Origin: an uncultured Pelagibacteraceae bacterium
GTDB taxonomy: Bacteria; Pseudomonadota; Alphaproteobacteria; Pelagibacterales; AG-422-B15
Direction: 5' to 3'
Assembly: GCA_902580665.1 (NCBI GenBank)
Contig: CACHLP010000001.1
Coordinates: 15,912-79,911 of the forward strand
Length of the DNA stretch: 64,000 bases
The position numbers were made by a program, and so were the translations under genes. Of this stretch, positions 52,521-53,627 are shown in pieces. The stretch's first letter is position 1. Each line of letters starts with the position of its first letter. The notes under the pieces were generated by a model that worked only from the letters and a program-made list of their open reading frames with translations, did not search any database and had not been told where the DNA came from.

Positions 52521-53627
52521 TCATTGTTTGGGAAAGTAATCTTCTTTTTGACCCTCACGATATACATCTGTAGTTGCACAGTGAAGTGCGCCGCCAAACG
52601 GATAAGCATCTCTGAAAGGAACAGGAATAACTTCAAAACCTAAGTTACTAATTTGTTCGCATTGATAAACCTCACTTTCTTCAACACATACAGTTTTTGG
52701 ATCTATGACCAAAACATTCATACTTAACCAAATACTTGAATAACATAAAGGAGGTGGTTCATTATGAGCTGGCTGAGCAGCATCAATTATTTGCCAATCA
52801 TTACGCTCAAATATTTTTCTCTGATCGCCAGGTAATCGCCTTGTTGGGTTATTTATTATAAGGCCTGGTTTTAAAGGAGTGAATGTTGCATCTATGTGAA
52901 TAGGATAGGGGTCGCCAGGAAAGTTCAATGTATGAACTCTATGGTCTTTAAAGTGTCTCTGGAGCCAATTGCTTCCTTTTAAATTAGTTGTAAAACCATG
53001 CTGTACAAACAAATCTTTTCCCATTCTTAAAATATCTGCGGCATCAAATAATATTTCTTTTTCAGTTGTTACAAATTCCCTTTTTGCAACCATATTTAAA
53101 CGTTCGTCTTTTGATATTTCATCATTTAAATAATTTTCTCGATAACTACTATCAGTTAGTCGTGGTTTGGGTGCAGTTTCCATTCTCATGTCTGGATCTT
53201 CATTATAATATTTCTCTAATAATGGCCTGTAACAAAGATACTCAAACCACCTAGACCTATAGGACATTGTGGCTTCAAGCATTTCATTCCCAAGAGTAAG
53301 AATTACATCTCGAGGAGGCATGCAGCCAAACATTGATCCATTTTCCCAGTCGGGCGTCGATATTTTTTTATTAAAGTCAAGTGGTGTGGGTCGGTCAACT
53401 TTAACACCTCTTTTTTCTAAAATATTTGAAAAATTATCTAATTGTTGATTTGCCTTATTTATAGATTCTATACTTCGGGGACCATGTATTCCCTTCATAT
53501 CACTATCTTTAGGTATTTTGGGGTCAGTAGCAGGCTCAGCGGGTGGTATGCAGCAATTATCTGCTTTTCCAACTATTATATGTTTGAGCGGATCCCACTC
53601 GTTCCAGGAATTTACAATTTTAACCAT
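52521..53627 (-). CDS. amidinotransferase, L-arginine:glycine amidinotransferase (AGAT/GATM)-like
   Basis: Collinear with vertebrate AGAT over the full length: [52 protein letters not shown], TAPKP. Triad contexts are FDAADI (Asp), IHIDATF (His) and [10 protein letters not shown] (Cys). Confidence 0.8.
   Translation of the reverse strand: [368 protein letters not shown]

Follow-up and report, generated by a model that had tools for sequence, protein, structure and literature searches.

An AGAT-family amidinotransferase of a marine SAR11 subfamily, with a gene context that hints at salvage of guanidino compounds

The 64,000-nucleotide stretch of contig CACHLP010000001.1 analysed here, hereafter the window, comes from an uncultured Pelagibacteraceae (SAR11) bacterium and carries a gene encoding a relative of vertebrate L-arginine:glycine amidinotransferase (AGAT or GATM, EC 2.1.4.1; hAGAT for the human enzyme). 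This gene had been singled out in a first examination of the DNA, made without any database search (the sequence-only reading), as a full-length AGAT-like enzyme of 368 residues, convergent with rodA and sitting alone in what looked like a minimal genome. The open reading frame (ORF) is found exactly as described, on the minus strand, and its translation holds all the motifs that had been quoted, in two stretches of 38 and 10 residues. The convergence with rodA is equally exact, as only 3 bp separate the end of rodA, at 52517, from the stop codon of the amidinotransferase gene, at 52521-52523. The surroundings of the gene consist of mreBCD-pbp2-rodA, of a flavin adenine dinucleotide (FAD)-dependent monooxygenase gene and of genes for an amino-acid ATP-binding cassette (ABC) transporter; they are those of a streamlined SAR11 genome and not of a secondary-metabolite cluster, in agreement with what had been proposed. 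The G+C content around the gene (0.345) is in line with that of the window (0.26-0.37), and there is thus no sign of a recent foreign origin.

When the protein is compared with the PDB using phmmer, its best match is human AGAT (1jdw, E=5.7e-83), residues 5-365 of the query being aligned with residues 66-422 of the human enzyme. The following matches are the bacterial amidinotransferases SxtG (E=1.1e-66), HsvA (E=4.4e-61) and StrB1 (E=5.9e-47), and nothing but amidinotransferases is matched in this search at E<=0.01. Aligned with human AGAT by BLASTP, the protein is 40% identical over 367 columns (E=2e-90), which confirms the collinearity with AGAT/GATM perceived in the sequence-only reading. 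The window protein starts where the catalytic domain of human AGAT begins (residue about 66) and, unlike the vertebrate enzyme, it has no mitochondrial presequence, that is neither an N-terminal extension nor a transit peptide.

The Asp-His-Cys catalytic triad, whose retention had also been claimed, is present as D195, H244 and C350 (Asp254, His303 and Cys407 in human AGAT) and is invariant in 197 out of 197 marine homologues. Asp246, located two residues downstream of His244, and D107 correspond to the guanidino-binding residues Asp305 and Asp170 of the human enzyme, respectively, and Arg322 and Ser354/355 are likewise kept in the window protein, as is the 300-flap. In human numbering, D170, D254, H303, D305, R322, S355 and C407 are all invariant in the same 197 homologues. 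In the structure of human AGAT, Arg322 and Ser354/355 presumably help to bind the carboxylate and the amino group of the substrate.

At the level of the fold, an AlphaFold2 model was obtained from 30 sequences that are all more than 70% identical, a shallow alignment giving a model of moderate quality (pLDDT 63.6, pTM 0.69), which served for fold ranking only and not for pocket analysis. The first structures ranked by Foldseek are all amidinotransferases (4jdw, 2jdx, 1jdw, 5wpi, 6u1r and 1bwd; E 3e-29 to 5e-22, TM 0.68-0.76), the best one being 4jdw (E=2.9e-29, TM 0.76), whereas the hydrolases of the DDAH, ADI and ArgZ types are found at E 1e-10 to 1e-8 with a TM of about 0.45-0.55. The profile databases give only faint signals, namely a C-terminal match to the Pfam ADI model (17.9 bits for a cut-off of 22.8) and matches to the NCBIfam arginine dihydrolase and DDAH models (about 20 bits for cut-offs of 300-1025, E=1e-4 to 1e-2). 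The weakness of the Pfam match is explained by a poor coverage of the subfamily by the model and is not evidence against membership.

All the defining features that can be tested are therefore present, and the window protein is a cytoplasmic Cys-His-Asp amidinotransferase of the AGAT/GATM family, which we predict with near certainty to be active. Strict membership in EC 2.1.4.1 (Arg:Gly) is not established, since the lid of the active site differs, the clade is separate from that of vertebrate AGAT and no guanidinoacetate-consuming partner, such as GAMT for creatine or the PKS CyrB, is found among the neighbours. The features of the window are collected in Table 1, among them an RNase P RNA and an alphaproteobacterial tmRNA, which helped to assign the window taxonomically.

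Table 1. Coordinates of the amidinotransferase gene, of its key codons and of other features of the window
Feature	Coordinates	Strand	Remarks
AGAT-family amidinotransferase gene	52521..53627	-	ATG-initiated ORF, 368 residues; SAR11/marine-alphaproteobacterial subfamily
Cys350 codon (human Cys407), nucleophile	52578..52580	-	aca on the + strand, i.e. TGT; preceded by His349
His244 codon (human His303), triad residue	52896..52898	-	alignment, codon checked in the DNA
300-flap lid, D239-P-Y-P-I243	52899..52913	-	alignment with human AGAT
Asp195 codon (human Asp254), triad residue, FDAAD motif	53043..53045	-	alignment, codon checked in the DNA
rodA	51384..52517	convergent with amidinotransferase gene	PF01098, E=1.5e-102
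Divergent intergenic region between amidinotransferase and FAD-monooxygenase genes	53628..53677	.	50 bp
Group-A FAD-dependent monooxygenase gene, MhpA-like	53678..55243	+	PF01494, E=3.4e-22; start 50 bp upstream of amidinotransferase gene
Small membrane-protein ORF	55428-55643	+	71 residues
Small membrane-protein ORF	55694-55921	+	75 residues
Lys/Arg/Orn-type ABC transporter genes (substrate-binding protein and two permeases)	56007-58301	+	TIGR01096, 223 bits, cut-off 256
RNase P RNA, class A	6633-6986	+	full length
Alphaproteobacterial tmRNA, two-piece	34981-35276	-	full length

The protein departs from the characterised enzymes in its lid and from human AGAT near its catalytic residues. The lid formed by its 300-flap, D-P-Y-P-I, is found in 183 of the 197 marine homologues, F/T variants being found in 13-14, and this combination matches no characterised enzyme compared, the flap being D-P-N-P-M in human AGAT, D-I-F-P-S in CyrA and D-M-H-P-M in AmtA (PMC4887976, PMC3684758). 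Compared with the human enzyme, one extra residue is moreover present ahead of the lid. Which acceptor is used is known to depend on the residues at the flap positions: Asn300 and Met302 have a role in the binding of substrate by human AGAT, and mutation of the flap residues of CyrA leads to a broader specificity (PMC4887976, PMC3684758). Near the catalytic residues, consistent differences from human AGAT are also observed (W352C, M353Y, F405L and W408A/C/S). The acceptor can nevertheless not be called from the sequence, as CyrA, with its F/S lid, takes only glycine, while AmtA, with a near-human lid, rejects it. Arg322 is kept in the window protein, whereas SxtG, whose acceptor is devoid of carboxylate, has a Phe at this position; this fits amino-acid-like substrates, without identifying them.

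The gene is not unusual for its lineage and turns out to be common. When each GTDB species is represented by one genome, relatives of the amidinotransferase are found in at least 592 species genomes, and the best 80 of these are overwhelmingly from Pelagibacteraceae (SAR11) single-cell genomes, metagenome-assembled genomes (MAGs) and isolates. The closest among the matches listed is that of the single-amplified genome AG-900-K14 (96% identity, with flanking genes 85-100% identical), and further carriers include MAGs labelled MarineAlpha5 (AEGEAN-169-like), Magnetovibrio, Filomicrobium or Hyphomicrobiales, as well as large-genome Alphaproteobacteria. At E<=1e-10, homologues in the protein database make up 2,405 clusters, of which some hold thousands of sequences. 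In an exhaustive library of representatives at 50% identity, the whole marine clade shrinks to practically a single cluster, and the nearest full-length representatives beyond it are only 43-48% identical. Human AGAT and SxtG served as anchors in a neighbour-joining tree of 72 full-length representatives, in which the marine sequences form one monophyletic clade apart from both; this tree, which has no support values and leaves out CyrA and AmtA, is indicative only. The window protein belongs to a compact subfamily that is restricted to SAR11 and further Alphaproteobacteria of marine origin.

The enzyme has already been annotated, as 'glycine amidinotransferase' by the Joint Genome Institute (JGI) and as 'inosamine-phosphate amidinotransferase 1' in one MAG, and the KEGG orthologue K00613 was assigned in a preprint on a North Sea bloom (10.1101/2024.12.10.627767). 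By contrast, the NCBI label 'serine/threonine protein kinase', carried by six clusters (P0035, P0046, P0071, P0074, P0082 and P0090), is an evident error that has spread across MAGs. The mentions found in the literature consist of one KEGG-based assignment (taurine to taurocyamine) and of lists of viral auxiliary metabolic genes, surveys of marine viruses including GATM and GAMT in such lists (PMC11360552, PMC10653327). A search among viruses gives a single match, in the giant-virus MAG IMG/VR GVMAG-M-3300023174-128 (locus L081, 4657-5802), whose product is 46% identical to the window protein. The idea of pelagiphage copies of the gene was therefore dropped, this giant-virus homologue being irrelevant to SAR11.

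The amidinotransferase is well conserved among the carriers. An identity of 74-76% is maintained from the window to Pelagibacter genomes in which the gene stands in another context, and it is under strong purifying selection. In loci L013-L019, which share the gene order of the window, the identities to the window are 75-76% for the amidinotransferase, 72% for rodA, 66-72% for pbp2 and 45-48% for mreC, the amidinotransferase equalling or exceeding the cell-wall genes beside it in conservation. In loci L002-L004, the amidinotransferase is 85-91% identical, while rodA is only 56-63% and pbp2 55-57% identical. These incongruent identities suggest that the history of the amidinotransferase differs from that of its flanks, and the gene has possibly been recombined or transferred among SAR11 lineages.

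To describe the gene context, ORFs were called in the 80 best loci and compared with reference proteins; the amidinotransferase ORF was recovered in 76 loci, and its neighbours were considered within +/-8 kb. Two main contexts are found. In 12 loci, the context is that of the window: mreB-mreC-mreD-pbp2-rodA converges on the amidinotransferase gene, which is followed by the divergent FAD-monooxygenase gene and, beyond it, by small membrane ORFs and a Lys/Arg/Orn-type ABC transporter. In 53 of the 76 loci, the gene belongs instead to a cluster whose genes all lie on one strand, in the order EamA/DMT transporter, creatinase (in some loci), amidinotransferase and L-threonine aldolase (in some loci). 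That the gene sits alone, as stated in the sequence-only reading, is thus true of the window subclade only, and even there not strictly, because of the divergent FAD-monooxygenase gene that starts 50 bp upstream.

The creatinase gene, which encodes 405 residues, lies between the EamA and amidinotransferase genes in 20 of the 53 cluster-type loci and is missing at this place in the 33 others. Its product matches the creatine amidinohydrolase of P. putida (1CHM) over its full length (E=5.6e-158) and is a clear orthologue. The aldolase, an L-threonine/phenylserine aldolase of 349 residues (E=1e-108 with 1V72 and 4e-103 with 7YVR), is encoded directly after the amidinotransferase in 35 loci. The genes are separated by median gaps of 6 bp (EamA to amidinotransferase, n=33), 5 bp (creatinase to amidinotransferase, n=20) and 2 bp (amidinotransferase to aldolase, n=35), and this tightly packed, same-strand cluster looks operon-like. 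A conserved ORF of 75 residues is also observed on the opposite strand, just downstream of the cluster, in 51 of the 76 loci (in L044 at 10145-10372, minus strand); no family match was found for it.

Other neighbours are encountered in individual loci. In L002, whose amidinotransferase is 91% identical to that of the window, the amidinotransferase gene is immediately followed by an inserted gene for a DoeA-like M24 hydrolase. In L005, a MarineAlpha5 MAG, the neighbours include eutA-like, doeA-like, dmdA and succinate-semialdehyde dehydrogenase (SSADH) genes. The neighbour genes of both loci are predicted to be osmolyte-catabolic. A second hydrolase of the M24/Creatinase_N type recurs near the amidinotransferase (L002 2673-3839, L005 9071-12147 and L044 10427-11578): those of L002 and L005 reach 450-486 bits on the ectoine hydrolase model TIGR02993 (DoeA; cut-off 613), the former matching PDB 6TWK with E=4.6e-99, and that of L044 is more distant (147-163 bits on DoeA models). 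Two MAGs (L022 and L045) have an adjoining, divergent ABC transporter of the PotA/SBP_bac_8 type, and other loci also carry FDH among the neighbours. Neither in the window nor in the related loci examined is there any polyketide synthase (PKS), nonribosomal peptide synthetase (NRPS) or other biosynthetic cluster, and no methyltransferase or PKS gene is found among the conserved neighbours of the 76 loci, these being neighbourhoods and not whole genomes.

Within the window itself, two neighbours were considered as functional partners and not retained. The FAD monooxygenase falls below the threshold of its family (249 bits on NF004829 for a cut-off of 390). It adjoins the amidinotransferase in the 12 window-type loci, being 35-47% identical in 10 of them, and is not near it in the other 64; given this subclade-only adjacency, the low identity and the lack of a chemistry joining an aromatic hydroxylase to amidinotransfer, a partnership is left unproven. 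The ABC transporter would be plausible, as arginine and ornithine are co-substrates, yet it is 2.4 kb off with two genes in between, and no ATPase gene adjoins it. The two small membrane-protein ORFs of the window are in tandem and similar to each other and have no Pfam or NCBIfam match. The one of 71 residues is 93-100% identical in loci (L008, L013, L014, L017 and L019) where rodA is only 65-72% identical, and it is conserved far above every neighbouring gene. Both promoters of the divergent pair presumably lie in the 50-bp intergenic region. A promoter and terminator scan around the amidinotransferase gene gives nothing above the shuffle expectation, with 17 promoter-like consensus matches near the gene for 20 +/- 4 expected, which is not above chance.

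Comparison with the characterised members of the family delimits what can be said of the function. Vertebrate AGAT is the best match by sequence and by fold, with a collinear catalytic domain, but the genes for the relatives of the SAR11 protein form an operon together with those for creatinase and threonine aldolase and do not belong to a creatine-synthesis pathway. CyrA/AoaA, the strict Arg:Gly enzyme of cylindrospermopsin synthesis, is a bacterial member of the AGAT type that has kept the flap but has a lid with neither Asn nor Met (F245/S247) (PMC3684758, PMC4887976). It differs from the SAR11 protein by this lid (F/S instead of Y/I) and by its location in a PKS/NRPS toxin cluster, the SAR11 gene being among primary or catabolic genes. 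As CyrA uses glycine despite its changed lid, a changed lid does not exclude glycine. AmtA of Pseudomonas syringae, the Arg:Lys enzyme that produces homoarginine, is reversible and acts on amino-acid substrates; although close to human AGAT, it rejects glycine (PMC4887976). It differs from the SAR11 enzyme by its lid, by its phaseolotoxin cluster and by the fact that it does not accept guanidinoacetate. SxtG, HsvA and StrB1, which belong to saxitoxin, polyamine and streptomycin metabolism, respectively (6U1R, 5WPI and 1BWD), share the fold (TM 0.68-0.73) and the catalytic residues of the SAR11 protein, but their acceptors are amines other than amino acids and their genes are in virulence or antibiotic clusters. 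SxtG has in addition a C-P-E-A-L lid. StrB1 reportedly lacks the flap that the window protein has. All the characterised bacterial members are encoded in secondary-metabolite or virulence clusters, and the SAR11 gene is outside any of them.

The chemistry of the family suggests how the enzyme could work. Cys350 would attack a donor such as arginine or guanidinoacetate at its guanidino carbon, the amine half would leave, and the amidino group would be held on Cys350 as a covalent S-amidino (thiouronium) intermediate before being passed on to the amino group of the acceptor, the whole reaction being of the ping-pong type and freely reversible. Experiments on AmtA have demonstrated reversibility, and both human AGAT and CyrA naturally use guanidinoacetate as a donor (PMC4887976). 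As for the direction, the gene context points to a salvage, in which guanidinoacetate, or a close guanidino acid, would be taken up from seawater, and its reaction with ornithine, which is formed on the way to arginine, would yield glycine and arginine. Both amidino nitrogens would then be kept as arginine instead of being lost as urea, and the carbamoyl-phosphate and argininosuccinate steps would be spared. Such a salvage would also supply glycine, of which, or of precursors of which, SAR11 needs an exogenous source, as reported by Tripp et al. in 2009 and Carini et al. in 2013. It is the most coherent reading of the cluster, as creatinase (via sarcosine and sarcosine oxidase), threonine aldolase and an amidinotransferase working in reverse would all yield glycine. 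In previous work, the SAR11 creatinase was assigned to 'core subgroup Ia', and SAR11 was found to convert glycine betaine and creatine to glycine (PMC3686209). The sequence-only reading had speculated on this salvage: the operon-like cluster of Pelagibacter, with its creatinase and L-threonine aldolase, brings it circumstantial support, and glycine as the acceptor is an assumption. That the enzyme runs in the salvage direction with guanidinoacetate and glycine is a tentative proposal, which the gene context favours without proving it.

Several points weigh against this proposal. The subclade of the window has no supporting cluster, its gene being flanked by rodA and the FAD-monooxygenase gene, and the whole 64-kb window contains neither a creatinase nor a threonine aldolase nor an EamA gene. 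Moreover, catabolic genes may come to lie side by side in a streamlined genome by coincidence, and, as EamA/DMT transporters are often exporters, the export of a product fits as well as the import of a substrate. The acceptor itself may be other than glycine, the Y/I lid being unlike those of both characterised Arg:Gly enzymes and several residues compared near the catalytic ones differing from human AGAT. At the level of regulation, an Rfam scan of the window from 52000 to 56200 (E<=1) gives no riboswitch or other match, and no glycine riboswitch or regulatory RNA is found in eight related loci, where the sole Rfam match is a tRNA in L005; there is thus no riboswitch tie between the gene and glycine status. 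Finally, in the literature searched, we found neither a report of dissolved guanidinoacetate in seawater nor a functional study or assay of the SAR11 enzyme or of its clade.

The same chemistry could alternatively be applied to another pair of acceptor and donor, such as sarcosine and creatine, taurine and taurocyamine, lysine and homoarginine, beta-alanine or gamma-aminobutyric acid (GABA) with their guanidino acids, or a polyamine. This would account for the separation of the subfamily from the vertebrate AGAT clade and for its conserved and unique lid, which occupies the positions that set the acceptor range in CyrA and human AGAT, and lysine, polyamine, aminoketone and inosamine acceptors are all known in the family. 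The PotA/SBP_bac_8-type transporter beside the gene in L022 and L045 also speaks for another pair, as does, for taurine and taurocyamine, the North Sea bloom study, which placed the KEGG orthologue on this conversion by annotation alone (10.1101/2024.12.10.627767). Conversely, the invariance of R322 and S354/S355, given the presumed roles of these residues, fits small amino-acid substrates, and the enzyme whose acceptor has no carboxylate, SxtG, is the one with a Phe instead of R322. On balance, we consider another pair as a serious but rather unlikely alternative. Among the candidate pairs, sarcosine and creatine deserve attention (arginine + sarcosine <-> creatine + ornithine), since creatinase adjoins the amidinotransferase in 20 loci. 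After natural communities of the Pacific had been supplied with 13C,15N-glycine betaine, Boysen et al. observed the 13C3,15N1 isotopologue of creatine (PMC9321204). This labelling means that sarcosine was the source of the creatine, and the authors held 'an unidentified enzyme' or creatinase working in reverse responsible (PMC9321204). With its unusual lid and its creatinase neighbour, in a dominant consumer of glycine betaine, the SAR11 enzyme is an obvious candidate for this interconversion. Sarcosine is however a secondary amine, and we know of no amidinotransferase that accepts one; furthermore, the 33 cluster-type loci devoid of creatinase between the EamA and amidinotransferase genes show that the link to creatine is not obligatory. 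An arginine:sarcosine (or creatine:ornithine) amidinotransferase beside creatinase therefore seems quite improbable to us.

Another possibility is that the enzyme works in the biosynthetic direction, from arginine and glycine to guanidinoacetate and ornithine, guanidinoacetate being then either a precursor (of a creatine-like compound, an osmolyte or a phosphagen) or exported by EamA. The homologues that come closest among the characterised enzymes canonically catalyse this reaction, and the JGI and KEGG annotations imply it too; it would be in keeping with the frequent role of EamA-family transporters in export, and the neighbouring threonine aldolase could feed it with glycine. It would, however, use up glycine, which is scarce and which SAR11 must reportedly obtain from outside. 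The conserved neighbours in the 76 loci include neither a methyltransferase gene nor any other guanidinoacetate-consuming one, the neighbours found elsewhere are catabolic, and the creatinase gene that almost overlaps the amidinotransferase gene from upstream in 20 loci would degrade creatine, which is incoherent with creatine synthesis. For these reasons we regard the biosynthetic direction as unlikely. A hydrolase of the same superfamily, of the arginine deiminase, DDAH or arginine dihydrolase type, is hardly credible. It could be evoked only on the faint Pfam and NCBIfam signals described above, which remain far below the NCBIfam cut-offs, whereas all the significant PDB sequence matches are amidinotransferases and Foldseek clearly parts these (E<=5e-22) from the hydrolases (E>=1e-10). 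The placement with deiminase- or DDAH-type hydrolases that the sequence-only reading had named as the outcome that would speak against it is not what is observed, the sequence comparisons giving E 1e-83 to 1e-47 for amidinotransferases and about 1e-4 for hydrolases.

All these results concern a known family and a known chemistry, already routinely annotated, and not a new kind of system; an enzyme that simply produced guanidinoacetate would be nothing out of the ordinary. No heterotroph of the ocean is more abundant than SAR11, whose small genome retains few genes that are not strongly needed. The high conservation of the amidinotransferase and its operon with creatinase and threonine aldolase make it a likely real node in glycine and nitrogen supply. 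It is thus likely that this node draws on guanidino compounds derived from plankton, such as creatine, guanidinoacetate or taurocyamine, and the operon context hints at a salvage of glycine and arginine from such compounds rather than at toxin or creatine synthesis. The amidinotransferase could also bear on the unexplained flux from sarcosine to creatine in seawater: were it to act on this pair, either the amidino nitrogen of creatine would be captured as arginine, or creatine would be made from sarcosine derived from glycine betaine. If the enzyme does run in the reverse direction on guanidinoacetate, it would provide SAR11 with a urease-independent harvest of guanidino nitrogen as arginine, and with a new way to meet its glycine requirement.

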